From Owenia fusiformis (lineage: Eukaryota): 64,000 nucleotides of DNA. The notes beneath the pieces were generated by a model. It worked only from the letters and a program-made list of their open reading frames with translations, did not search any database and was not told the origin of the DNA. Below, piece after piece: positions 2,751 to 28,600 of this stretch. Position numbers and translations under genes: made by a program. The DNA lies in assembly GCA_903813345.2 (NCBI GenBank), contig CAIIXF020000001.1:20088001-20152000 (forward strand), read 5' to 3'. Each line of letters begins with the position of its first letter. The first letter of the stretch is position 1.

Positions 2751-3647
2751 GAGAGCGTAATAAGTGTCAAGAACAATTTCGACCTTTCTTATATACCTAT
2801 ACAGGTTGATTCCGATTTGAGTCCTTTGAATTCAACTGATCAGAATCCAGGATCTCTCTAGGACAATCAGTCAGTCTGACTCTGAGTCTTTGAATTTCAA
2901 TGGCTTTGATTTTGAGCTAACTTTTACTGATAATTATAAGTGTTCAAAGTGAAAGCAATTACATAAAATATCAAAAATATCCGAGAAAGTAACTTTAAAA
3001 TAATAAAAATCAAACCAACTCATCATAAAATAGATTTATCGTGGATGAAATTGGAGTTTAGTAAAGAGTGTCAAATATTATTTCTTACCAATTCTTTTGC
3101 TCTCGCCGTTAGATGGCGGTTCTGCGAGAATTCAGATTGTCCAACGAGAGTTCTAACTTTTTCGTAACTCGTGAATATTTCTTCATATTTTTAGTGATTT
3201 ATGAATATAACGGCAGAGATAGTAATTAAAAGAGATGTTTAGTGTAGGCAGTGTACCCCCACAGGTAGGTAGAATGATATAGACAATATTACATGAGCTA
3301 AAATCCATGAAACAGTTGCTTTCTTTTTATAAAATAATATTTCAGTCATTTTTTCACTGTTCAAACTGAAACTTCGATTTCGTCATGATAGATCATCCTA
3401 AAGCCTATACATCACACTAGAGGACGTGAGCGGAAGTCAACCTTATGTCACGGTACACTGAAGTTCGCAATAATGAGGTCATATATGTACATATGTAGGC
3501 CATGTATAGTCTAGTGGGAAGTTATACAATTATAAGCTGATTTAGGCTTTATATAACAGGTTATGAAACTAAAATTCTCATTCCAATTCTTCATGGCTAT
3601 TGTGCATGGGTCTTGCAATCTGCTTGGTTAAATCACTTGAATGACGC

Positions 3648-4486
3648 CTACAATCAAATTTTTTATTCTGTCAATCAGTTCATATGGTTAGAATAAGGAA
3701 AGAATGTGATGTAACCACGTGTCTACTTACTAGCTTGTTCTATGTCATCCATCGGACTAGGTTACATCGTGGAACGCAGCCAAACACGAGAATGAAGCCA
3801 GTATTCTGAGGTTATAAAATCTAAATCTAAATAATTTCCCATTTGCAGCCCCTTGGAGATTTCCGGAATTGAACCAAGTATCGAACGTTGCGATCTTTCA
3901 ACTTTAGTTCGTTGTTTTTTCACCACCTTATGTGTACTGTTTTCATTTAGGAGGCGGTCTTATTTGAATGCATCATTACAGGTCTTTATGAATCAATAGA
4001 TCAATAAACAGCTCTAAAAATACAATTTAGCAGTTTCTTTCATTGCGTACTGCGCATGTTAGGCACGAAAACAATTTAGCAGTTTCGTTCGTTGCGTAAT
4101 TGGGCCTTCTATAATCAAAAGCAAATACTCGGAAAACATTTTCCAAAATATTTACTTCCGATTTCCTTGAAGACATGATTGGGTGACACGTCATTGACAC
4201 GTGATTAAGTCACATGATCGATACAGTAACTAGTCACGTGATCAGACATGTGTCACGTGTCAGTCACGTGAGCTTGCAAAATGGACGATCTAAATTTCCA
4301 AAAATTCGGCTAAGATCAAGATAGATATGCTGTTGCCTTCAGCGTCCTGTTCGACTGCGTTCCACGATGTAACCTAGTCCGATGGATGACATAGAACAAG
4401 CCGGTAAGTAGACACGTGGTTACATCACATTCTTTCCTTATTCTAACCATATGAACTGATTGACAGAATAAAAAATTTGATTGTAG
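3648..4486. repeat. About 132-bp inverted duplication bracketing the promoter
   Basis: 3648-3779 is the near-exact reverse complement of 4355-4486. Confidence 0.9.
4045..4290. promoter_or_regulatory. Probable YME1L1 (possibly bidirectional) promoter with an E-box cluster
   Basis: CACGTG four times in 4198-4272 (three as GTCACGTG), GTCACATG near 4209, ETS-like ACTTCCG near 4154, NRF1-like TGCGCATG at 4051, YY1-like CAAAATGG near 4277; locally CpG-rich. Confidence 0.6.
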
Positions 4487-4921
4487 CGTATTCATGTAAA
4501 AAGTTTACTCCCATCCCTCAAAGAACCTTCTTACTCACGTGGTACTAACTCTCCGGGGCATATCGAAACCAAAATGCCCCGCAAAACCGTTAATTTGAAT
4601 TTCAAGTCTACCCTGTCTTGGAAAATCAATGATTGTGAGGCTCACACTATACCGTTTTTCTTCAAACTTGTTCTATTAAAACCTTCACAGAAATACCTTT
4701 CAGTCGAGACATTGCCTTTGTTTACAAAGTCCCTCGTTTTAGCGGCGTTTTGGTCCCCAGATGTGAGAAGATGCAAATCTTCAGAGATTTCAACTAAACG
4801 CCTCGATATATCGCCAGTTCTTTTATTATTCTCCCCTATATTTTGCTCAAGGACTCCCATTACAACCCTCCATCGCTGCATCAACATATTTATAACATTA
4901 TACGCAGCAATATAAAAAAGT

Positions 4922-5080
4922 CCTACGCAACTGTTCGATATTGACCAAAACGCCCCATTGTCTTCCAAAACGCCCCGCAGAGTCTATGACTACAGACGTG
5001 TATAGAGAAGGTATATAGATCCAACGGGGCGTTTTGGAAGAGAACGGGGCATTTTGATCAATTTCGAATAGATCCGTAGG
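4922..5080. repeat. Imperfect inverted repeat / small MITE-like hairpin
   Basis: Arms at about 4922-4977 and 5024-5080 (TTCCAAAACGCCCCG / CGGGGCGTTTTGGAA). Confidence 0.65.
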
Positions 5081-5094
5081 AAATTGAGTGAGTT

Positions 5095-5540
5095 AGTACC
5101 GCGTGTTACTCAGACCGTCTCAAAGTCCTAGACATGACAACACTGGCCTTCGGAAGACTCAGAGGTGACATGATAGAGACTTACCAATACATAAACAACC
5201 TTTATAATATAGACTCCAATTCACTTTTCCCTGGTTTACAACCACAGGACATACACCATACAAGAAGGTGCAATACACAATATCTCCGAAAGTCACATTG
5301 CAGTACAACCTTAAGACAGCAAACGTTTAGTCAGAGAGTTATAAAACAGTGGAACTAATACCAGAATGGGTAGTAAATGCACCAAGTGTAAATCAGTTCA
5401 AAAACAGATTAGACTCTCACTGGTACAATAACCCAATGAAATATGACCATACAGTGGACTACCACTTTATACACTGTTACTAACTAAATATGAACAAATT
5501 CAAAAGTATTGATCGGTTAAACAGGCAATTTATGCCTACT
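5095..5540 (+). mobile_element. CR1-type LINE 3' fragment
   Basis: ORF 5134-5358 reads RLRGDMIETY..FSQRVIKQWN, followed by PEWVVNAPSVNQFKNRLD. Confidence 0.8.
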
Positions 5541-5542
5541 TA

Positions 5543-6022
5543 GGGGCGGGGTCAAAATATCAATGTTCATATGGAGACGAAAGTAATTTCGTTTGGACAA
5601 CAACCCCCCCACCCCCCCTCTAGACGAAAGCTTAGGTCACTTCAAAAAAACATTGATTTATGAGAGGCATAATCGTATCCTATTTGCCGGGTTATTATTA
5701 GGGTGAATTAACACACGTTCGCAATTTAATTGCATTGAACTCTTCAAAAGGAGGAGGTAAAAGTACGGAATTTATTTGAAAAATGATCGAATTATCGTCT
5801 TTATCTACCGATATTTTGGACCTATCACACAAAAAAGCTCACAAACTATTGAAAACAAGCCTTTTTATCAGAACATAGCGCCAGAAAAAGTCCAAGTATT
5901 TTTTGTATATCAGATCCGAATTATCGATGTTTTTTTGGTCAACGAAAGTGCCCAAAAACCCCCTCCCCCCTCGCGAAAGTACTTTCGTCTCCATATGAAC
6001 ATCGATATTTTGACCCCGCCCC
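5543..6022. mobile_element. PIF/Harbinger-type MITE
   Basis: About 48-bp TIRs (GGGGCGGGGTCAAAATATC..ATGTTCATATGGAGACGAAAGTA) flanked by TTA at 5540-5542 and 6023-6025. Confidence 0.8.
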
Positions 6023-6324
6023 TTACCGTACTAACTTATAACTTATATAAAGATGGAATGATTGAAAGCAGTTTTCCTCTGTAGGGGGAAATGGTCATGA
6101 TTATCGCACGGTCCTAATTATCGCACAATTTTCCCAAATAGCCAAATCATGCACCCACCTCTTATAAACCAGTGTGTTTTAGGAGTAATTTATCTAAATC
6201 AGGTAATAATAAAAGGTGCATCAAGATCTATATGCAGCAGTGGTGAAATATGGTTGGAAGGATCAATACATGAAATATCAATGGGAGAAACTTCCGTATT
6301 TAAATTTTTCATCTTTGATTTCAG

Positions 6325-9300
6325 CAACTTTTGCTGCCTGCTTCACAACTTGTCTCAATCCTAAACACTGTGAGGAACTTGTCAGTACCAAAGAAACAAC
6401 ACAAGAAAGATACAACCAGAACACTAGAAAATGAGGAGATAAGCAATGAGGTATGACATCTTCCTTTCATTTTAAAGGTCACCTTTTAAAATGCAAAGGG
6501 AGTGTACTTTTTCTTTCAACTTTAGTTTTTTCAATATTCATTTTGCGAAAGTTATAGTTCGAAACATTGATCAATATTTTCAAGAAGGTACAGTGTAGTT
6601 TTATATGCCATGAATGCAAGTTAGAATCAATATACGTTCATGTAATCACACATTTTTTTATTCTTGTTTTAGAGAATTCACAAAGCTCTTGGACTGGAGG
6701 GACTGCCACGAGACCTAAAGCTTGAAGACTACTGTCCCATCAGAGCCATCATACACAGTGTTGCACCAAACACCTCACCAAATAGGAGCCATTCTCATGT
6801 CTCTGCTAATACTTTCTTTGAAAACACAAATGGTAAGATGTGGAACAATTTATGAATAAATAAAACAGATGTACATGTACATTGATTCAGAATCTAAGAT
6901 TTATAGACCCAAGAAAACACAACTTGTCTCTGTTATGAGCTTTCCTTAGTGTTTTATATTAGGCAGTATTAAATTCCATTTGATTGAACCTATCTTATAC
7001 ATGTATATTGTATATGGTATATGATTGTGTATTTGTGCTATGCATATCCCTAACAACTATTGAGCAAAAGTTTAATGCATGAAATGATCATTGCATTGAA
7101 GCCTTTGAGACTATAGATAAAACATCCAAAGTTTTCTTGTGCCAGTGATATATATCTGCCTATTTGATATTTTGTGCAATGTATGTTATGCCTATTCTTT
7201 GTTGTACCATATTTTAGGTTTCCCTGTAGAAGATCTGTATGTTAATCCAGTAGCTCCGTCTTGGCTGACATCTCAACTTCTTCAAAGGCATACACCACCT
7301 GCTGGTAGGCTTCTAGAACTTATATTTATCACAAAATCTTTAATGATATTCAAAACTTGTGAGATTTCATTGAAACGAAATGTGTTAACCATCAGGGTTT
7401 TTTATTGTCCTTTCAGATTAGGAATCTAACATTAATCATTTATAGTACTGTGCAACATCATAACTAGTTGGTTAAAAGTATAGAATATCTGTATCCATGA
7501 TGATTAAATCGCCATGTTAACTTTTAATTCCAGTTCTAGTCCAGAAACGTCATTTCCAGCAGAGAAAAAAGCGTGGAATGGGTCAAGAAGAAGAAGACAA
7601 CTCATTCTCATTCAAACTCGGATCTGTAAGTTGATGATTTGAAAATTGAAAAATTGTGTGCACCATTAACGTGCAATGTATGCACAATGTTTTTTTTAAA
7701 TTTTATTATTTATATGTCAAACCATCAGTTTTTGTTAAAAACATGGTGAACTGGGATTTTAAATCACAAACCCAGCATTCCTGCGTCAATTCTTGCATGT
7801 ACTCAATTTAAATAAACATTCAATGTAATGAATCTGTCACCAACAGGTATTTGACAAATTGAATGACAATAGAAACAAAAAACAAAACTTCAAGACGATG
7901 TTGTCTCAGTATCAAGACAAGCCAGACATCCAAGGGAAGCTAGAACAGGCATTTGGTAAAGGTTACGCTGCAGCTGAGAGTGAGCTAGGGGGCAAGGGTG
8001 TCACTACTGCCAAACAAGGGTCAGCATTTGCAGGTACAGTGAGAAAGTTCCTCTGGTATGCTTTGGCCCTATGGCTCATCTACAATGCCCTGCAGTTGTT
8101 CAGCATGGCAGGAACAAGTAAGTAGGATTTGAAAAATACTCATTTACTTTAAAGCATGTTCATTTCAGTCAAACTGTACACACAATGTTAAATTGCTACT
8201 GGTTTGTGATTTACATGATTGATCAGCATTTTATTGTTTGAATTAATGATGAATGAAAATTTGTTAATATAATATATAGTTTTACATGATAAATGCAATA
8301 TTTTCTCATTAGTATGGTCTTGTTGAACTTTGCAAGCATTGCTTGAATGAATTTTTTAACTATATATAGTGAGCTAATTCCAGTCCATTTGACTCCAGTA
8401 ATTGAAATGATCTGATTTTCTTCTTTCAGATATGAGGGGACTGAACATCCTACAACAGGAGAAGTATGAGATCAACCCTGAAGAAATCAATGTCTCCTTC
8501 AATGATGTGAAAGGGGTAAGTCATAAACATTGATGTCAAAGGGAAGATAAACTATGATATTGAACTGAATCACTTGAATTAAAGGAACATTGAACCATAT
8601 AGATGTTAAAATGGATAAAAATCTTTTTCTCGCATGATTTAAAACCTTCTATGATGATTCTGTTTTGGAAATATGTATCAAGTTGCATTTAAAGTCGGTT
8701 GTTGCCATGTTTAGACCAAGGATTGAAAGTGTCCACAAGAAACCACATAAGATCTGGAGGCCCTGTTGCATATTTTTTCCTTTAATTTACAGGTAGATGA
8801 AGCCAAATCAGAGCTACAAGACATAGTTGAATATCTGAAAGACCCAGAGAGATTTAAAACATTAGGAGCTAAACTACCCAAAGGTAAACATTTCATAACA
8901 TCTATTCTTATACTTATAGACAGGTTATTTTTTATTTTTGGTATTTTTGAAGTAATGGAACAAAGGACAAGAGCCCTTCCCCTCTTCACTTGAGCTGATG
9001 AACATTAAAATGTCATGTGACTCACATTAATATCAATTTTTACATGAAGTATGGATTTCCTTCTGACATTTAATTTGCAATAAGTATGTTGATGTCTTGA
9101 TTCATAATTTAACATTTTACTGAAAAATAACAGAACACAGTTTAAATCAAGTAAAGTAAAGTTAAATTGTCAAGTTTTGTTGTATTTGTAGGTGTTTTGT
9201 TGGTAGGGCAGCCAGGTATTGGAAAAACTCTCCTTGCAAGAGCTGTAGCAGGTAAAAAATTAGTTTTAATGGCCCTTCAATCGTTTTTTTTTAATATGTG

Positions 9301-12300
9301 AAAACACGAAGGTATCAGGATAAACCATGATAAAAATGTATACTGCCTGTCACAATGACATCTATTCAAATTATGCAAATAAAACCTCCAGCAGTTTAGT
9401 TGTCCCAAGCTATGTCACTATATTCAACAAGTTTAATTAATTGACAGAATATAGGGCAAACACTTGTTACTATTCCTTTTTTATATTTTATGGTGTAACT
9501 ATTATACACTCCCTTGGGTGTCCAGATCTTATATAGATATTATATGGTTTTAATTAAAAAATAAATAAATAATAACAAAACCAAATATTATTAAAAATAT
9601 AATAATGACTATAAGTAAAAAAAATTATTTTGCTATGATCACCCATATTTTGCAATTGGCAGTGGTTTAAATGGTCAAAATTCCTTCCGTAGGTGTCATT
9701 GGGAATTTTTCTACAGCAAATGTCAGTGATATTCCAAATCAAAATTTTATTATTGTATCATACAGTTTATTCTGTAAAATTCAAGATTTTTCTCCTATAG
9801 GTCAAGCAGGGGTGCCCTATTTCCAGGTGTCAGGGTCTCAGTTTGACGAGATGTATGTAGGCGTTGGTGCCAAAAGGATTCGAGAATTGTTTGGTATGTC
9901 CTAATTTAAGCCACTGCCCTATTTGCCTGCCATACATTTGGATGACACTTTTCAAATATTGCCATGAGAAATATGGCATGATTTGAAAAATGGCATACCA
10001 ACTACCTGTTTGAAACCATGCCTAATGGGTACGTTTTTGAAATCTGGCATGGTTTCATTCAAGTGAAGTTTAATTTAGTAAAGCACCTAAAATGCTATAA
10101 AAATACCTGACTTTAAACAGGGGAAGCTGGGGTTCCATTTTTCCAATGCTCTGGCTCAGAGTTTGATGAAATGTTTGTCGGCACTGGAGCAAAAAGAGTC
10201 AGACAACTGTTTGGTGAGTATTCTATGTAATTTGAGTCCAGTAATCTGGGCAAATAAAATGTGTGAACAAAAATTTTAACAATAGCATCATGTCTAGCGA
10301 GCAACCTTAACAGAAAATTGTCACAATTTTAAAATACTTTTGGGTCATATCATTCTTTCAACAATCATCTCTATTTTTCTAAAAAATTCCCATATAATGC
10401 ATACTATTATGTGTTCATTTCTCTATAAATGTGTTCACCACATTTATCAATTAACTTAATAGACATTTGTGGCAAATTGAGCACTTTGAATCTTGAATAA
10501 CTTTACCTATTTATAACATACCACAGATCTTTTGGGATTTGAGATGATAAAGAATACATTGGTAGGTCAATTGAACATGTTGGTTGCACTTTTGTCACTC
10601 CCCTCTGATTCTGCCTTTAAACAGTTACTTCCTAACTAAAGTAGATACAGTAATCATTATGAAATTGCCTAGTTTAATCAGCATAATCAGCTTTTTCCAA
10701 GTTACCCCATTTCTTGTAAAATGTATCTTTTGCATATGACAGTGATATTCCATACTTGAAGTTATTGCAGCGAGTCAAGAATTTACCTTGCACTCAGCTG
10801 AAAATGTTTTAACCTTTTTCTCGCTTGATAAATGCATTATTCAAAATCAATACTATGCATGATGTAATCATGAAAATGTTAATATATATATAACATGTGT
10901 ATGAATGTTATAGGTTCAGCTAAATTGCGAGCTCCTTGTGTGATATTCATAGATGAGATCGACACTCTGGGTGCTAAACGTACAAGCTCACAGATCCATC
11001 CCTATGCAAATCAAACCATTAACCAGCTGCTTGCAGAGATGGATGGGTAAGCTACTCTCTCTCATTCCAGTCTACACTTAATGCCCTCTTGGCTTACAGC
11101 AAGGGTTACACCAAGTGCTTTTTAGGCTTACGGCAAATGTGCTTGAGGCTTATACTAAAAGCTTGCCAAGGTTGCACCAAATCCTCTAGGGCTACACCAA
11201 ATCCTTTCTAGGGTTGCACCAAATGCTCTCAAGGGTTACACCAAATGCTTTCTAGGCTTACAGCAAATGCACTTGAGGGTTACACCAAATGCTTTCCAAG
11301 GATATATCAAATCCTCTCTCGGGTTACATCAAATGCTCTTCAAGGTTATAGAGAGAATCTTCATCCAAAACATTAAAATGGACTGGTCCAAGTTATCACT
11401 CACCTCAAAAAGAATGAATGTACTTGCATGTATACTGATCTCTTATTATAAGACTTATATAACCTAGTGTAATATTGTGACATCTTTTTGTGCCTATTTT
11501 CATAAATCATAATAAAGTTATTGATATTGATAGACACTATTTTTATCCATGAATATATACAATGTTAAATACATTTACACACTCCCCTCCAGGTTCCAGC
11601 AGAATGAAGGTGTCATAGTGCTGGGTGCTACAAATAGAAGGGACAATCTAGACAAGTAAGGCTATAAATATTAGGGCTTTGACAATGCATTGAAATTGCA
11701 GTGTTAGTTCTTAGACCGCGGTCAGTTCAGTTCGAAATCTATTCGATTCAGTCTTTTACAGAACATTAATTCACATTAATTAATATCTATTCAGGAATGT
11801 TTAGTGAGCAAAAAGACCATTCACTGTCACATAAAATGATAATACCGTTGTAGCAAGTGAAGATTTTGGCCTTATTGATGCTCTTTTAAAAGTCTTAAAG
11901 CCCATTTTGGGGCTATTTTACTACCCCAATGATATTCTTCATTGCCTGATACTAAAATTGATATTCATTTTTATTGAGACTAGATCCAAGAAATTTTTGA
12001 ATCTGGAAATAGTATTATTCCTTACAAATAATTCACATGTCCATGTATTTTAGAGCTCTTTTGAGACCAGGAAGGTTTGATGTAGAGGTGAGGATATTCT
12101 CCCCTGACTTGAAGGGCAGAAAAGACATAATAGAACTCTATCTCAAGAAGGTCACGGCAGATTCAAGTAAGTATGCACATCTCAGATTGACTCAAAGTGA
12201 TATGTAGTGGCTGACACAAGTAACTGATGTTCCCATACATCACTTATTACAAGCCAGATAAACCATAAGGATTTTTTCAAGCTTGTTACTGAACTGCCTT

Positions 12301-14743
12301 GTAAATCAGGTACCTTGAGCACTCTTATAAAGCACTACATAGTCTGACTTACTGTATAACTGAAGCTTGTCATAGGCTGACAACTTTATTTATAAAATTA
12401 TATTTGCTCTTGTCTGACAATGTAAGATTACATCTTCTAATTGGCATGGCTTTAATTATTTATACACACCAGTGATGGTTGATATTGGATAAAGTAGATA
12501 AAAATGGAGGCAAGTAGACATTGAGATGCGATCACTGAAATTGTATTCTTTATTTTCGCCAGCTTGCGATTGTGAGAGGTTGGCACGGGGCACTACTGGC
12601 TTCACAGGGGCAGACATAGAGAACATGGTGAATCAGGCAGCCCTGAAGGCAGCTAAAGATGGCAGTCTGGCTGTGTCTATGGCAGACTTGGAGTGGGCAA
12701 GGGACAAGGTACTAATGGGTAAGTAAATTCAAGGAGAGTTCAGTAAAATATGTATTAAGTAAACAGTTAAAAGTTTAAGTATAAGGGATTAATAGAGATT
12801 CTGTATAACATAATTATAATTGATGAGAATGCACAAAAGGCAGTAAGAGAGGCAACACATAGTTTTAGTTTTATTTCACTGTCATTGTTGTAGGGCCTGC
12901 AAAGAAGAACAGAATTCCTGATGAGGAGACTAACTGGATGACAGCATACCATGAAGCTGGTCATGTCCTTGTAGCCCACTACACCAAGAATTCAACACCC
13001 CTACATAAAGTCACCATCATACCCAGAGGAATGTCACTCGGCCATGTGAGTATATCATTATTTCATAGATCTAGATTTAGTATAGTTTATATGTTGAATT
13101 GGGTGCTTCAAATATTACCTCTTGCACTGACACCCCCTTCCTATTTTGGCTGAACTCCAATATTGCATCCAAGGATGTACGTTGACACATGATTAACAAG
13201 CTTGAGATACTGTAAATGTAGAGAGAATATATGAGCTATGCTATGTAGTAATACTTATTGATTTTTGGGTTCATGTTTTATGTTGTTTCAGACTGCCTAC
13301 ATCCCTGAAAAAGAACAATACAACCATAGCAGGACACAGCTGATGGCCCAGATGGACACTGCTATGGGAGGTAGAGTGGCTGAAGAACTCATATATGGAG
13401 CTGATAAAGTCACAACAGGTATTGCTTTGAGAGTAAATCCATATTTTTAGTTCTGTAAGGCTATGTGTGGTTCTATTTTCCTCAGACTGCTTTGAAATGA
13501 TGTAATCCATGTTCTGTATAATACTCATTTTGTTCAACTTTTGTTAACTTAAGCTTTTATAAATGGAAATTTGTTAGGGAAGGGACGATGCTTTGCATGT
13601 ATTAAATAATACTAATCCCTTCATATTTTGTATTGTCACTCATTTTTCTGTACATGTACATGCATAATGTATTCATATATGTAATGTTCTGCAGGAGCAT
13701 CCAGTGATTTCCAGAGTGCCACGGGTATAGCCACCGCCATGGTGAGACGGTTTGGCATGTCAGATAAGGTACTTCATTCCTTTGCTCAAAATAAAATGCT
13801 CAAAGGCAATTCCTTTGCTCAAAAATAAACTGCTCAATTAAGGAATAAAACTGGTCAAATTTGATTTGATGATAAATATTTTGTCATTACATATCATTGT
13901 TTTTGTTTCATCTCTGTACAATTTAAACAGACTATGCTATGCTATGTAGAATGTCAATACTGTCAATTAACGTTTGAAGTAAATACTGTAGAATAAAATA
14001 CTTAAGTAAAGGGATATGAAAAATATTATTAAACAATATTGTGATGAGAAAACAAATGCATGTACTTAGAAAATATTTCTTTTTAGGTTGGTGTTCGGGT
14101 GTTCAGTGATGATGATGGTGCAGATGGGGGATTGACCATGGTGAAAGTGAATGATGTCAGCCCTGCAACTCAAGAACTTATAGATAGTGAAATAAAAAGA
14201 CTGCTTCAGGTAAGGGACAATTTAGAGTCAAATTCAAATATGGGATACAATAAACTGGTAAAATCCAAAAGCCACTGGGATCAGCCTCGTGTTTGGAATA
14301 GCATTTAAAGGTTCATTAATAAGAAAGTCAGTGGAAGATTTGAGAGGTTTTCAGATTACAGAGGCATTGAGATATACAGGTTTTACATTTAGGTCATGTT
14401 AACATAAAATAGATTAAATTAATATGAAATTAACATTACAACTGGTTCATTACACAAATCGAACTGTATGATGCACTTTGCATGCTTGTTTGATGTAAAA
14501 AATGTAAGGATCTTGCTTAGATCTTTTCATTTAATTTAAGACATTTAGAAATAAACAGCATACTGTATTTTAACATTATTGTGTGTTTTTCAGGAGTCAT
14601 ACGAGAGGGCAAAAGCAATATTAAAAGCACACTCTGTGGAACATAAACTCTTAGCTCAAGCTCTAATGAAATATGAGACACTAGATGTTGATGAAGTTAA
14701 AACTATAGTAGAGGGAAGAAAATTGATCAAGCAACCCTTGTGA
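6325..14743 (+). CDS. YME1L1: ATP-dependent zinc metalloprotease YME1L1 (i-AAA protease, FtsH family), multi-exon; first coding exon unresolved
   Basis: Phase-consistent GT-AG exons: 6325-6450, 6673-6832 ([11 protein letters not shown]), 7218-7304, 7534-7625, 7847-8117 (TM segment [16 protein letters not shown]), 8430-8515 (VSFNDVKG), 8793-8883 ([29 protein letters not shown]), 9192-9251 (Walker A GQPGIGKT), [9801-9893 or 10121-10213], 10914-11046 (Walker B IFIDEID), 11593-11655 (GATNR), 12054-12166 ([12 protein letters not shown]), 12563-12718, 12894-13045 (HEAGH zinc motif), 13292-13418 (GGRVAEEL), 13695-13768 (GASSDF), 14087-14209, 14594-14743 (TGA stop). Confidence 0.95.
9801..9893 (+). 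CDS. YME1L1: YME1L1 alternative exon A (pore loop 1): (G)[30 protein letters not shown](G)
   Basis: ctatag|GT...TTG|gtatgt; 93 nt, phase 1-1; open frame; paralogous to 10121-10213. Confidence 0.85.
10121..10213 (+). CDS. YME1L1: YME1L1 alternative exon B (pore loop 1): (G)[30 protein letters not shown](G)
   Basis: aaacag|GG...TTG|gtgagt; 93 nt, phase 1-1; closer to the usual YME1/FtsH consensus GEA.VPF...[18 protein letters not shown]. Confidence 0.9.
11085..11350. repeat. Degenerate ~21-bp minisatellite in a YME1L1 intron
   Basis: Repeated GGGTTACACCAAATGCTTTCTA-like units. Confidence 0.75.
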
Positions 14744-17700
14744 GGATCACCTGGGTCTAACTAATTCAACAAATTGAGAATATATCTTGCAGTGGAGAGA
14801 CAATGTTAAGACCATGGGGGAACTGAGATGTCTCGGGGTCTCGGGGACAAAAACTCAAATCAGGACTTTTGCTTTAAGTCAAATTAATCAAAAGTAGTAT
14901 AAAGAGTGAAATGAAAAATATCATGTTATTCTGATGTGATTTAATTGAAAACTCATGTACATAACTTTAGATTTAGCATCTAAATTATTTATTTTAAGTT
15001 GCAGAAAACAGCAAGAGTTCTGTTGATTTTAGTGCTATAGGTCATCATGAATGGTGTTCTGTTTTTCACATCATCTGCTTCTATAAAGAGGACTACTCAA
15101 ATTGGAATCATTGTAAATTTACATACTGACAAGAATGCAAGATTTTTAAGTGTTACTGCATTTTAATTTTTGCATATTAAATATTCAAGGTAGAGTTATG
15201 TTGATTGTGATATAAGGGAGAGGGGAAAGGAAATTGGTTTATGACCAGTAGATCTGAAATGCTTTAAAGGAGACACCCCGTGAAGAATGATTAATGTTAT
15301 AGAAAAAATTCAAAAGAGAACAGTGATAATGATAAATATATATTCTGCATGAGTCTCAGTGGAACATATTCAAAATATAGTGAATAAAAAAGAATGTTTA
15401 TTTTATACATCGTTATATCAACTGGGAAATGACTGCCATATTAGAAAAGGTAATATGTTTTCTCTTAGCAATTTGGAAATAATAAAATTAAATATCATAC
15501 GAGAGAATGTTTATGTTCATTTATTTTTTATTATATACAATGCTATGAGCTGGTTGATGTATAAAGAAATATGTGGAGGATGGACTTGCGTGATTTATAT
15601 GGGGAATGCCAATGTCTCGCTAAATAAACTTACAAACAGCAAAATGGTTTCCACTCTTAGACAAGTTGGTGAAAATTGCAGGCCGTATTATTCTTTTTAT
15701 AGAAAATTTGGTTTATTTTACAGATGGCAATTTTAATCTATCCTTTCTAAAAGTTTCTGGGAGTTCCCTTTGTAAATGACAAATAGTAACAACTTTCATT
15801 CATTAAAAAAATTAGGATAATATTCCCCATTGAATTACAATATAATATGATGATCTTTAATCCAGCCAACTAACAACTGCGGAATTGTACTGGCTTTGCA
15901 GGGTATGTAATCGTTGACCCGACATAACAAACAACATTGGTTCATTTCTTTCAAAGAAATTTATTCACTTCACCATAAGTATGAGAAACAAGAAATGTGT
16001 TGCAGTGAAATATACCTCATTGAATTTCACTGTCCCTACAAACCCTAATTTACCAGCAGAAACAACATATTATATCCCATAATAGTCAAGTTTCTACTAG
16101 CAACAAGGTTAAAGCAGGCCATGTTTTTTACAACTCAATAAATGACAAGTTGTCCAAGAAGATGATACATTACAAACAGTACATACCATTCAACTAGATT
16201 CAAATTAATTGTAATATTATGTCTGTTGTTACTTCATATTATACTTAACATATGGGCCAATCTTGATTATAATTTTCAAACTAATAAACAAAATAGACTT
16301 TTCTTGAGAAAATATAATGAGACAAGAGTGTGTAATAATCTGTCTGAATTGGATATAACAAGACAAACAAAGTGTCCAAAAAGTAATGAGATCATATGTT
16401 TCTCAATACTTTTAGAACACCCTGTAAATAGAACAGAGATGTGCAATTCTGGCTAAAATATATTATCTACCATACCATTTTATAAATTTACATATGAATT
16501 GAATTGTACATTCATGAATCTGAACTGTTTTCAAATATTCTAATATTTCAACATGACTGCAATTCATCTTTCAATAATGCTTTGTTCAAATGTTTCTGGG
16601 TCACCCTGTGATCCAGGTGTACGCAGGTTAACATGCAACCTGTCCTAATACATACGACCTATCTGGGCATATCATGACATCAATATGCAGAGTGAATTAA
16701 CCACCTGGCTATTTCACTCAGCCTACCAAATGACTCGGCAATGCACATAGGTGATGTTATGTTCTAACCATTATACAATATTTCATTAGATGCTGTAGAA
16801 TAAATATTGGAATAAATTCACAACCATTTATTGTGTCATCTGAATAGGTTAACAATACATTTTTCTGAGTAAACTTTAGATAATGCTATTCTAATATAAG
16901 AAGAAGTTTCCACTATGTCTGAAGAAAATTTTCAACTCACTTTATGTACACAAGCATAAATAAGATAATGGTATAAAAACGGACGGTTATAAAGTACTAC
17001 TCTATACAAGTATGGCTGCATATACCATATATATATATAAAATACATTATAATGTACCATGTAAGATATTGGTTTTTTCATTTACATTTTATGGATACAT
17101 TATATAATGCAAGTAAAACATCCTATATTACCCTTACTGGAATCCGTTGTTAAAACTGATAAACATAAAAATTAATTTATTGTCTATACATATTAACAAT
17201 TTTCTAGCTTATGGATTTCAACTGATGTACATAATAATGTTGATTTAAAAATTATTAAATAACTGTGTAGAAAATACCAAAACCCAAAAGTAATTAAAAT
17301 GTAATTATGTGAAAATGCTAACAGGTGCTATGAATGGATTAAAATAATAATATTAATTATTATTCTATACTCAAAACTCATGACTTAAATTCACACATGT
17401 AACAAGAAATCACAATTGATAACGTCCTTATATAAACTTCTTGCGGCGTTTTACTTACTTTTATTATGTATACTGTACATTGTTTGGTAAGGTTTAACTC
17501 AGGTAAATTAAGGGCACTGATTATGATCAACAATCTAGATTTACAAATGTCCTTTTATTAAGAGGATCACATCACTACAATCGATCTAGCATCGTTCCAA
17601 ACATATACAGAATATATTCGATTAAATAGAAGTGAAAACATCTTACACAAGATAAGCTGGTCATTCGTCCAACCTTTTTTATTTTTCATTTATACTAAGG

Positions 17701-17959
17701 AACCTATTCGCCAATACTAGATAATAATAATAATATACACAATTTCTTTGAGATCTCTATTGTACGAGTCCAGCATACAATAGCATAAGATTTACATTAC
17801 ATTCATTGATCTTAAACCTCTACCTACATGCACATAGAGTTAGGTTTAAACAGGGGTTCCCAGCCTGTTTACAGTCGTATTACATGTATAGCTCTTTACA
17901 TGTAAGGTAGTTTTTTTCTTGATCTGTAATAAAAGATTCCTTCAGTATATGAGTCCGGC

Positions 17960-18305
17960 GAATGTTGAAATGTACTATAGGAGACATGTTTAAATGTATT
18001 GTAGGAAACATGTAGTAATGTAGTGTAGGAGACCTGTTGAAGTGTTTTGTAGGAGACGTTTCATGTTGAAATGTATTCTTGGAGACATGCTTATGTTGAA
18101 ATGTATTGTAGGAGACATGTGTCATATTGAAATGTACTGTAGGAGACATGTTTATATCGAAATGTACTGTAGGAGACATGCTTCATGTTGAAATGTTCTG
18201 TAGGAGACATGTTTATATCAAAATGTACTGTAGGAGACATGTTTATATCAAAATGTACTATAGGAGACATGTTTCATGCTGAAATGTATTGTTGGAGACA
18301 TGTTC
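17960..18305. repeat. ~31-bp minisatellite between the convergent genes
   Basis: About 11 units resembling ATGTTGAAATGTACTGTAGGAGACATGTTTC. Confidence 0.9.
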
Positions 18306-19608
18306 ACAGTAAAATTTACACTACAAAACATAACATGTTTCAAGCTGATGCTTACATATTGAGGCGTTTTTATCTTTAAAATGCAATGTTAACTGTTAAG
18401 CGAGGAGTCCTTAAATGTGCTTTATGAACATACATGTTTACTTATTAATTTTAAGAGACACACTTTAGATGAACTATGACAGATATAATCATGTACTTGT
18501 GTAATTTTGCAATACATTTCTTGGATATTAAGTTGAAGACATAATGGAGGCCGTCAATTATAAGTTTAATGTTAAAATCGATTAAATCGAATGGAATTGA
18601 AGTTACAAAAGAAAGACATGTAACTACAAACTAGTAACTTCACTCAGTATAAGATATGCAGTTGAATATTTTAAAAACAGGAATTTGGAGGAAATCTCTT
18701 TCTTCAGTGATACATTGTACATCTGCAAAAAATTTTAAAAGTATAAAGGTATAATGATATTTACATTACATTATAACATTATAAAAGCCATGTTGTTCTT
18801 CCACCATTATGAAATTCATTATTCTACTGATAACCAAAACTTTCTAACTGAAACATATTTTAAACATTTTTGGAAAATTATCCCATATTGTGATTTGTCT
18901 AAAGGTTATGATCTTAAGTATAAGGCAGTACAGTGCACTGTAGCTTATGAATCTCTTTAACTGGCATTATGCTGTTGAGCCTACAAGCTGGGACCATATT
19001 TTAGTCTACATCCTTTTCTTTGTTTCTAGCTATGTTCATGATGAGTTGTTCACCTTGAAAGGTTCCATTGATTCTAAGATGGAATTCCTTTAATCATGGG
19101 TTCCACTTTGAAAAGCTCCATTAATCATGAGATGGATTTCCTTCAACTGTGGGTTCCAGAGTAAAAAGACCAATTAAGGGAATTCCTTAAATCTCAGGCT
19201 CCGTTATTTAGATTGGATCGGTGAATGTTGAATATTGTATTATGCTTCAGGCCCCTTTTAACTGGTACTGTACATTAACAAGTGACTAGTATATGTAGTG
19301 TTTCTCATATGTAGATGGAAATAATGAGACTATATTACAATGCGCCATGTCTATCTGAAACCAAAGTACACATTCCATTAATCACTTTAATGAAAAAAAT
19401 GTATTAATACACACATCTCAGAAGGCAATTGCAAATCTATGTACAGATTATGTACATTTTTTAACCTGTGATACCAGACATATATGCAGTGATAGCTATA
19501 CATTTATGAAAATATTAAGTTGTTTTTTCTTTGAAATTAATCATACATACATTTATAGATCTACTTTTTCATGAATGGAAAAACAATGTTTGTTACCTTC
19601 TACCTCTG

Positions 19609-25600: not shown

Positions 25601-28600
25601 GGATGGGAATAAGCATAGGTTTGCCACCTTAGAGAGGAATTTACAAAAGCAATTCTGTAACAGTTCTGCAAAGGTAGGATTTGAATGCACCGTGGAGCTG
25701 TTATTGCAAGGATAGCCTACAAAAAGAGCATGCACACAATTTTAAAGCTTTTTACAGGGCAAAATACAGGGTGTTTTAAAAATATAATATGCATGTTTGA
25801 TCTCATATTTTTAGAACGCTGCAAATTGGTAAAGGGTACGCATGCAAAGAGAAATTCTCCAATCTTAGTTGGAGAAATTCACATGTAAAAGAAGAAACAC
25901 AAATATTCCATCACCGACCATGATTGTAAAACATGTTGTCATCATAGCTTTGCTTTTAAGCCAAGTAATGATTATGTCTGCTATTTAAGACATTTACCAA
26001 AACAAGTATATTTTGATTTCAGTTACAATTTTCCAAACACAATTTTTACCCTTCCAAATGTAATTCTTAAAAAACATATTGATGTCAAACTGAAAGGTTA
26101 TTGAACATTTAAAATGGAGAAATCTGTGAATTACTAATCACCATCATGATGATTATCTGGAGAAGATTGTTTATTCTCATGGGGTTCCTGAAGCCCACAT
26201 TTATTCTTAGCAGTTAGGCCAATATACAGAGTGGGCCAATAAAAATTGGAATGTGGATCCAATGAGGATAAAAAAGTTATGACCTGTGATTTTATTGTAT
26301 ATGTAATTTCTCAATACATGTTTATTTACGAATGAAATTCATTCTCCAAAGTCTTTGTAATGTTCTCTGCTCCATATAATGTACAAGTAACACTCTCCTG
26401 GGGTGGAGATAAGAAAGCTGCACATGCATACAAGACACCAGCAACATAACGTCTCAGCATTCGAGAGCAACTAAGACAAAACATAGAATAAGGGGTGGAA
26501 TGAAAGCTTGACATAAATACTGGAGACCAAAATGCCTGTTCCTGGGTAAACACAAACCTGCTGTCAAATTTATGTGGATATTTTTCTCGCATCAAATGAA
26601 ATTTGTGGGCTATTGACGCATCCTGGAATAGACTTTGTATATTAGTAGAAATTAAGGTTAAAAACATGATGAATTTCTAATCCAACAAACTTTAACAATG
26701 ATTATATAACTGTTAATGATTTGGACTACATACTGTATTGTGAACATCCTCTCCATGTATCTTGACCCAACCCAAAAATAAACATATTGTGAAAAAATGA
26801 ACACCCTTTTCAAAAACATTTGGGAAATATTCACATTCAACTGAACTAAAATGAAAGTAACAGCTTACCACCCCAATAGAGAAATAATTATTGATAATGT
26901 TACAAGGAACTGGATCCCCTTGTTCTACAGTATCTGGCGTACTAAACTCTATCTGCCAGCGATCCAGCTGGACTTGGTTACCACTCTTTATTCTGTGTAA
27001 ATATTTGTTCAGATTTTCTCCCTCATAACCTGGAAAAACACAATTGTTTTCAAAAAAGACATTTACATACTTAATTTTTCTTTTTTACTCACATTTTACT
27101 TGATTACATATAGTGCATGTGGTATATCGCATATTAAATATTTTCAAAGGATGCAATGTTTGAAGGATACTTGAACAACATTTTTTAAATTGCCCTCTAT
27201 TATGTAAATGTACAAATTGCATGCTGGCTTTGACTGTTAACAGTATATCAATAACTATTGTTTAAAATGACACATGCTATACATCAAAGAAAAGTGAGCA
27301 CTGTTTAAAATCTAGATGCACATGTGGCAAATGTTTGAGCCGGATAAAATCCCCATGTTCAATAAAATGTCACACTTACAATACAATACAATAAATGGTG
27401 AAATGAATGTTATGTGGCTGTAAATATTTACCTCCTCCCCAGTTGAGACATCGTGCCAGGTCATTACCCGTCCCAAGAGGTAGAACTGCCACTGGCGGAC
27501 GATTTACAAAGGTCACCTTATCTACAACATAATATAAATACTATTTATTCATGTTCATTGAAGAGCATGAAAATGAATCCCTCCATTCTTGACAGAAACA
27601 GAATAGGTAATAATGATATAGAGCTGATAATAGAAATGTATACTATTATTACTTATGCACTGCATTGTTCTTTATACTATTGATTCCTTTCAAAGCATGT
27701 TTCACTGGCTTTTGGTTTGATCATATTCAACTGCGTAGTTTCTTGTGTTAAACAATATCAAGAAGCAGCAGGGGATATCTAACTGCATGCCTATTAATCC
27801 CCCGCCTACTTAAATTACCCCCTTTCTACTCACCCATGGCTTCAAGTAACCACCCGACTGTTCCATCTCCTCCGCAAACAAGAATTCGGAAATTTGGCAC
27901 GTCTTTGAAAAACTGCAACCTAAAAATGTTACACTGTGGATGCAGTTTGTGTTATATTTTCATATTTTCAATGTAATATAAAGCATGAGTCTGCATAGCT
28001 TATAACTTCATACAATAAGTTATACAATGTAGTAATACTTGTAAATTCAGTAATGACTGTCTATAAAGTGCACACCTCCCTATAAAGTGCAAACCTCCAG
28101 ACAGACCTGCTCATGTTAAAAACTGACCCCTATAACATTAGTGCCAATAAATTCTGAACAAAGTGTTCTCACTTCAAGAAATTCAATTTAAAAGAACCAG
28201 GATATTGTGATTTTTGAGATATGCTTTTGTCCATGTGTGAGTATCAATATCTATGCATACACAGTTGAGTTCATAAATTTACAGTGTACATACACTTGGA
28301 ACAATGTTTTTAATGTTGGCAGTCAATGTACTGTATATTTAAATGTGTTAATTCGGAATAAAGAAAGGAGAAAATGAAGGTTAAACATACGCTGGTTGAG
28401 GTCCTCCATTTTTGATCAGATCATAAACCTGCCTTGGGTTGAGTAAATACTGAAACTTTCTTAATATCCTGAAATAAAATGCAATCAAACTTGAACACAA
28501 TACGAATGTGTATTTTGTAACATAGTTGCTGCATAAAAAGTGGGCAAAAAGGTAGGTAGATGATCATTTGACATTTTCAAGACATACAAGTTAACCATTT

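Follow-up and report, generated by a model that had tools for sequence, protein, structure and literature searches.

In the annelid Owenia fusiformis (family Oweniidae), a gene for the mitochondrial i-AAA protease YME1L carries one of its exons in two versions. The gene lies in a window of 64,000 nucleotides (nt), the whole stretch of DNA analysed here: positions 20,088,001 to 20,152,000 of the forward strand of contig CAIIXF020000001.1, GenBank assembly GCA_903813345.2. Its public product is a deposited, unnamed protein of 728 amino acids (aa). We consider it likely that the 93-nt exon for pore loop 1 of Owenia YME1L was duplicated in tandem long ago and that the two copies, A and B, have become a mutually exclusive pair, each mRNA receiving one or the other. 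Between the Walker A and Walker B exons a transcript would then carry A, with the loop M-Y-V-G-V-G, or B, with M-F-V-G-T-G. The gene would supply two i-AAA subunits that differ at 8 of 30 residues in the substrate-contacting strand and loop, including the residue equivalent to Tyr354 of yeast YME1. The elements concerned are the following:

9192..9251, + strand: constitutive Walker A exon (GQPGIGKT); ends in phase 1 with ...GCAG; joints 8883>9192 and 9251>9801
9801..9893, + strand: exon A, tyrosine version of the pore loop; tatag/GTCAAG ... TGTTTG/gtatgt; not in the deposited protein
9894..10120, + strand: intron between A and B, 227 nt; two local hairpins at about 9938-10001 and 10006-10062
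10121..10213, + strand: exon B, phenylalanine version of the pore loop; aacag/GGGAAG ... TGTTTG/gtgagt; residues 336-365 of the deposited protein
10914..11046, + strand: constitutive Walker B exon (IFIDEID); joints 9893>10914 and 11046>11593

In a repeat search the two exons rank first among the direct repeats of the region (97 nt, 71% identity). Each exon is 93 nt long, has phase 1-1 and intact AG and GT sites at its edges, and is open in the frame imposed by the Walker A exon. The two agree at 65 of 93 nt and 22 of 30 residues. Comparison of the 30 codons yields 7 identical ones, 15 synonymous differences and 8 residue changes, which are, in the order A/B, Q/E, Y/F, V/C, Q/E, Y/F (the pore-loop aromatic), V/T, I/V and E/Q. 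No third or decayed copy was detected in the 64-kb window by tblastn with both peptides, the next match having an E value of 0.24. A preliminary description of this DNA, which the present analysis follows up, had already given the coordinates, lengths, phases, spacing, splice sites and open frames, the position between the Walker A and Walker B exons and the many synonymous differences. Direct reading and alignment of the exons agree with it on all these points.

Twelve sequencing runs from three studies bear on the use of A and B in transcripts. All are labelled RNA by guess and none is on record as RNA; they match 13-21% of the sampled words of positions 7800-14800, about the exon share of that stretch. 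Four were assessed as contigs (X1, X4, X5 and X9). X1, X5 and X9, which come from three studies, contain spliced sequence, as shown by GT..AG joints at the introns of the gene. X4 has no joints, 45 of its 59 contigs are only 90-95% alike, and it is uninformative on splicing. Contig depth, being one figure per contig, is a coarse measure that cannot give isoform ratios, and contigs drop rare forms.

Exon A is clearly used. The joint from the Walker A exon to A (9251>9801) occurs in X1 (depth 625) and X9 (13.9). The joint from A to the Walker B exon (9893>10914), by which B is skipped, occurs in three of the four runs: X1 (1391), X5 (1119) and X9 (13.9). Contigs over the next three constitutive joints have depths of 1744 in X1, 1796 in X5 and 38-48 in X9; by this coarse measure the A-junction contigs reach 29-80% of neighbouring constitutive depth in the three runs. 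Because these depths are comparable, A is no trace form. The deposited protein model contains B only, and with A it misses an abundant isoform.

The splicing of B is seen less directly. Record 25 of X9 is 194 nt long (depth 47.2) and matches 10118-10212 only; 74 letters before this part and 25 after it lie elsewhere. Positions 10118-10120 read CAG, just as the Walker A exon does at its end; the end of A is TTG. Since the extra letters at its start are CAG and not TTG, the contig, as its letters read, has B preceded by the Walker A exon rather than by A; it runs from the Walker A exon into B and then into something else. The tail of 25 letters is exactly as long as the side of the A>10914 joints, as would be expected of a two-path bubble that closes in the same downstream exon. 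In X1, X5 and X9, moreover, the depth bin 10140-10373 lies far above the intron contigs.

Could both exons normally be included together, so that strand and pore loop would be present as a tandem internal repeat and not as alternative exons? With 93 nt each, co-inclusion keeps the reading frame, as the preliminary description had rightly noted. The same runs cover both exons, and only 15 of 21 joints are listed, so that an A>B joint could be among the rest. In three runs, however, the A>10914 joint bypasses B, the deposited protein contains B alone, the B contig begins with the closing letters of the Walker A exon instead of those of A, and among 110 single-AAA relatives (see below) none has two adjacent segments. 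A duplicated core beta-strand and pore loop should also prevent folding of the AAA domain. We therefore regard routine co-inclusion as very improbable. An error of assembly, by which alleles or paralogues were misplaced in tandem, is hardly credible. Of course, the species is polymorphic and many contigs are only 90-99% like the window. The exons, however, are just 70% identical in nt, which is too low for alleles, their flanks are unrelated, and only one Owenia YME1L protein was found. Unspliced contigs of low depth from independent runs, furthermore, pass from A through the intron into B (X1 record 3, 9866-10147, depth 27; X4 records 11 and 12, 9737-9979 and 9982-10230).

The exclusive pair appears to be old. 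In a pairwise codon comparison the proportion of synonymous differences (pS) between A and B is 0.82, above the saturation limit, while that of nonsynonymous differences (pN) is 0.15. The 27 coding differences fall 8/4/15 on codon positions 1/2/3. When 27 differences were placed at random 100,000 times, not one placement kept clear of stops with as few as 8 residue changes (mean 16.8, minimum 10). Because synonymous sites are saturated while pN is low, and no random placement was as conservative, the duplication is, on the codon evidence, old, and both copies are kept as coding sequence by purifying selection. This selection test takes A and B jointly; constraint is not apportioned to either copy, and no outgroup enters. 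The dN/dS ratio (nonsynonymous over synonymous substitutions) that the preliminary description proposed for each exon has its counterpart here in pN and pS of the pair, not of the single exon. Its alternative of a dead duplicate is contradicted by intact frames and splice sites and by a pS of 0.82 against a pN of 0.15.

Which of the two came first can be judged from other species. The relatives considered are the best 120 of 7993 scored candidates; the segment pattern was found in 118 of them, of which 110 have a single copy and 8, all long multi-AAA proteins, have two or three. Each of the 110 single-AAA relatives has a segment that resembles B more than A, and the common lophotrochozoan form agrees with B at 27 of 30 residues, against 20 of 30 for A. 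The match of B to other lophotrochozoans suggests that B is the ancestral-type exon and A the diverged copy. At segment position 1, A has Q where all 110 have E. A also carries a 13-residue tail that is found in fungal and protist YME1 (5ubv, 6az0, P0121-P0134).

These comparisons, together with the absence of A from the deposited gene model, lend some weight to the idea that only the ancestral-type exon B matters and that A is a tolerated by-product, be it splicing noise or an exon drifting to loss. The Q at position 1 would fit it, as would the lack of any relative with an A-type exon as second version among the 110 relatives and 53 cluster members. It is hard to reconcile, however, with A-junction contigs at 29-80% of neighbouring constitutive depth in three runs, coarse as the measure is. 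Nor would one expect saturated synonymous sites with just 8 of 30 residues different, or the frame, the splice sites and every motif residue intact, which none of the 100,000 neutral simulations produced. On balance the by-product explanation is unlikely.

Several observations nevertheless weigh against a conserved, mutually exclusive pair. The first group concerns B. The joints 9251>10121 and 10213>10914 are not among the 15 joints listed out of 21, and the splicing of B rests on the geometry of one contig, on the cover of a depth bin and on the deposited model. Neither 9893>10121 (both exons) nor 9251>10914 (neither exon) is among the 15 of 21 joints listed, and either could sit among the other 6. 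The runs are typed RNA only by guess, and contig depth yields no isoform ratio. The junctions that the preliminary description proposed to count were thus recovered for A (9251>9801 in two runs, 9893>10914 in three), not for B or for A>B. Its claim of mutual exclusivity stands for the forms seen, i.e., the A>10914 joint that skips B, the B-only protein and the B contig that begins with CAG.

The second group concerns other organisms. Among the 110 single-AAA relatives, each with one segment, there is no second pore-loop version. In 20 clusters (Octopus, Haliotis, Mytilus, Aplysia, Patella, cuttlefish and unnamed transcript-derived proteins) 53 of 53 further members have the same segment as their representative; 12 additional members are fragments without the segment. 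The frame around A (77 aa from stop to stop) had 14 matches among 44 candidates, the best with 82-84% identity and none with the Owenia A form; the corresponding frame around B has 39 aa, and the deposited protein served as query for B. A scan of 1.84 billion representatives with the 30-mer gave 2078 matches at E <=0.001, of which the best agreed at 25 of 30 residues. Neither protein library contains a sequence identical to A. The preliminary description had proposed to look for both peptides in related genomes; in short, the pair was not found in relatives by peptide searches, and conservation of the switch is no more than a possibility. These searches are a weak test: they covered protein libraries only, the nearest relative is about 60% identical, and no close relative of Owenia is included. 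Gene models also commonly keep just one exon of such a pair. Finally, the exchange of Y for F is conservative, and its functional effect may be small.

Five short, unnamed predicted proteins (P0206, P0210, P0225, P0226 and P0339) contain two tandem pore-loop segments, mostly with repeated flanks; in P0206 the second copy has diverged. They may be artefacts of assembly or prediction, or hints of similar exon duplications elsewhere.

Pore loop 1 is the substrate-pulling part of every AAA+ unfoldase, and what has so far been learned about its aromatic residue comes from mutagenesis. The peptides of A and B align over residues 1-30 without a gap to residues 59-88 of a 6az0 chain (yeast YME1) and to the equivalent part of many FtsH chains. 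At position 18 of the peptide A has Y, as yeast does, and B has F; V-G comes next. The motif residues G-S-x-F and aromatic-V-G-x-G-A-K-R-x-R-x-L-F are intact in A. According to passages of a preprint on the yeast enzyme (bioRxiv 10.1101/189316), Tyr354 and Val355 of pore loop 1 are arranged as a spiral staircase and intercalate into the substrate; the mutation Y354A abolishes degradation and lowers ATP hydrolysis. Because of this role of Y354-V355 and the gap-free alignment, both exons are identified, by homology, as encoding pore loop 1, aligned at these two residues. The preliminary description had already placed pore loop 1 in this segment.

The pore-loop aromatic position is variable in nature. 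The 133 segments of the best 120 relatives have F in 80 cases, L in 42, Y in 10 and W in 1. The 42 segments with Leu, which is not aromatic, belong to the arthropod-type YME1L relatives (ticks, spiders, insects, Daphnia; P0068-P0120; EFDEILVGQGARRVRDLF).

Several features bear on how the choice between A and B might be enforced. The splice sites of the two exons are unequal. A has a strong acceptor (19 of 30 pyrimidines, with a run of 10) and the weaker donor gtatgt. B has a weak acceptor, with 13 of 30 pyrimidines, a longest run of 4 and CTGAC 10 nt before the AG, and a strong, consensus-like donor, gtgagt. The intron between A and B is structured: its fold is somewhat better than that of shuffled sequences, with a z score of -2.43 and 3 of 200 shuffles as good, and it comprises two local hairpins formed by inverted repeats. 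Short complementary arms exist around A (9658-9672 with 9904-9918), between 9981-10006 and the start of B, and between the donor of A and 9983-10001.

The familiar devices do not apply. Steric exclusion is ruled out, since the 227-nt intron is too long. Incompatibility of U2 and U12 sites is likewise ruled out, as the introns are GT-AG; the donor of A, gtatgtcc, presumably does not fit the U12 consensus. A filter by nonsense-mediated decay (NMD) fails because 93 is a multiple of three, and double inclusion as well as double skipping stay in frame. Competing RNA pairing of the flanking introns is not evident either, with z scores of 0.28 for A, -0.04 for B and -0.47 for both (59, 42 and 31 of 100 shuffles as good). 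The sequence before B gives no sign of a distant branch point, its AG-free zone being 35 nt long and CTGAC standing 10 nt from the AG. With a strong acceptor and weaker donor in A, the reverse in B, and a structured intron between them, we would conjecture that the choice is regulated by trans-acting splicing factors that act on the unequal splice sites.

The acceptor of the Walker B exon (10797-10913), for its part, combines an AG-free zone of 114 nt with a poor tract of pyrimidines (14 of 30). Possibly, then, the branch point is a distant one in the intron that has to be crossed from A as well as from B.

What the pair might do for the enzyme can be imagined in several ways. Because both isoforms occur in the same samples, in X9 at least, mixed hexamers would be possible; the preliminary description had raised them too, beside a possible switch by tissue or stress. 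Y and F, and L in arthropods, occur naturally at the pore-loop position in relatives, and for this reason the difference between A and B would rather tune grip or substrate handling than act as an on/off switch of the enzyme. One may go further and propose that regulated splicing swaps pore loop 1 (Y-V-G-V-G against F-V-G-T-G, with six more changes) by stage or tissue, thereby tuning grip, unfolding power or substrate range, and that co-expressed isoforms form mixed hexamers in which the composition of the pore staircase is set. This extended proposal is tentative, and we would not bet on it.

Mutually exclusive exons (MXEs) that arise by tandem exon duplication were reportedly described by Kondrashov and Koonin in 2001 and by Letunic et al. 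in 2002, and catalogues of such exons in Drosophila and man are said to be due to Hatje and Kollmar. Exons 4a and 4b of OGDH (PMC7969005) are an example of such a pair. The Owenia pair resembles these cases in that the exons are adjacent, homologous, equal in length and phase and set between the same flanking exons; that a compact structural element is replaced at unchanged protein length; and that both exons are under purifying selection. Unlike the usual MXEs, it shows no steric block at 227 nt, has U2-type GT-AG introns on both sides, lacks an NMD filter and displays no excess complementarity between the flanking introns. It also differs from the known ones in hitting the substrate-translocating pore loop of an AAA+ protease. 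The kind of event is therefore known; new is the site, the substrate-translocating loop of a mitochondrial AAA+ protease.

As far as the available passages tell (6az0; bioRxiv 10.1101/189316; PMC12994072), yeast YME1 and human YME1L have the same domains in the same order as the Owenia protein, with Walker A, Walker B and HEAGH. In yeast YME1 the aromatic-Val-Gly stands at the same place; exon A has the yeast-like Y-V-G-V-G, while B has the F of 80 of 133 relative segments. The YME1 and YME1L enzymes described have one pore loop 1 per gene, whereas the Owenia gene has two spliced versions. Similarly, the aromatic variation between species consists of fixed differences, whereas in Owenia two variants reside in one gene and are chosen by splicing. 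Common to both is that an exchange of Y and F is tolerated in evolution, as the counts at this position (F 80, L 42, Y 10, W 1 of 133) attest. In a 2026 review of mitochondrial AAA+ proteases (PMC12994072), the passages that contain "isoform" or "splic" concern OPA1 only. The literature searched holds no description of a pore-loop MXE in YME1L or in an AAA+ protease, though supplementary exon catalogues could hold such a case. Nor does work on alternative splicing in Owenia deal, by title, with the YME1L gene among the matches listed.

A gene with two loop versions chosen by splicing would mean that evolution has found a use for two grips in one enzyme. The pair of natural variants, 8 residues apart, is ready for a comparison of ATPase activity, unfolding, degradation and mixed hexamers. 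If the regulated swap were true, it would amount to pore-loop engineering by nature, preserved over a very long time. For the AAA+ field such natural pore-loop variants are of moderate to good interest. For the evolution of splicing the pair is ordinary apart from the missing enforcement mechanism; as an MXE pair without the usual enforcing devices it is a possible test case for other mechanisms.

The gene as a whole extends as follows:

3235..14743, + strand: whole YME1L-like (i-AAA protease) gene with about 20 coding exons, based on a tblastn comparison of the deposited 728-aa protein with the window, on Pfam and on GT..AG joints in RNA contigs

The deposited protein (P0001) was the single match, at 99% identity, among 156 candidates when the frame around a 5' coding exon was the query, and a single YME1L protein of Owenia turned up in the protein searches. 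Pfam recognises in it AAA (E 8e-43, residues 316-445), AAA_lid_3 and Peptidase_M41 (E 5e-67, residues 529-717). This order, an AAA+ ATPase domain and then an M41 zinc metalloprotease domain, is the layout of the i-AAA/FtsH family. The Walker A, Walker B and HEAGH (HEXXH) motifs can be read directly in the protein and in the exons of the window. Among solved structures yeast YME1 (6az0, E 9e-140) matches it best, before FtsH and AFG3L2 (6nyy, E 5e-115), and the top named relatives in the databases carry the annotation YME1L. i-AAA proteases have a single N-terminal membrane span and expose their catalytic domains to the intermembrane space. An 18-residue hydrophobic stretch visible in the deposited protein is a candidate for this span. 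Judged by its best matches, the gene is the YME1L (i-AAA) orthologue of Owenia and not an m-AAA subunit (AFG3L2/SPG7). The preliminary description had called it YME1L1. The assignment to YME1L is upheld by Pfam, 6az0 and the named relatives; YME1L1, however, is the symbol of the vertebrate gene, whereas here we deal with a single annelid orthologue.

The introns around the pair contain repeats of various kinds. A 33-nt direct repeat with 79% identity (..CAGTGATATTCCA) is found at 9704-9736 and 10720-10752; one copy stands 65 nt upstream of exon A, the other 162 nt upstream of the Walker B exon, and none precedes exon B. In the intron after exon B, positions 10374-10607 reach contig depths of 4091 (X1), 2243 (X5) and 302 (X4), with many loose ends and odd joints. 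The stretch is probably a transcribed repeat of which other copies exist elsewhere. A tandem array at 11023-11467, in the intron that follows the Walker B exon, repeats one motif in three frames.

Outside the YME1L gene three further stretches may be mentioned. Upstream of it, on the minus strand at 1857-2766, there are reverse-transcriptase-like frames (RVT_1, E 2.7e-5, below the Pfam cut-off), probably a decayed retroelement. On both strands at 17880-18390, long open frames arise from a repeated unit (..MSPTVHFN.. / ..CRRHVYIEMY..), i.e., from a tandem repeat. At 27376-27540, again on the minus strand, a frame matches DAGK_cat, the catalytic domain of diacylglycerol kinase, with an E value of 8e-8, which passes the cut-off; this exon belongs to a neighbouring gene on the opposite strand.

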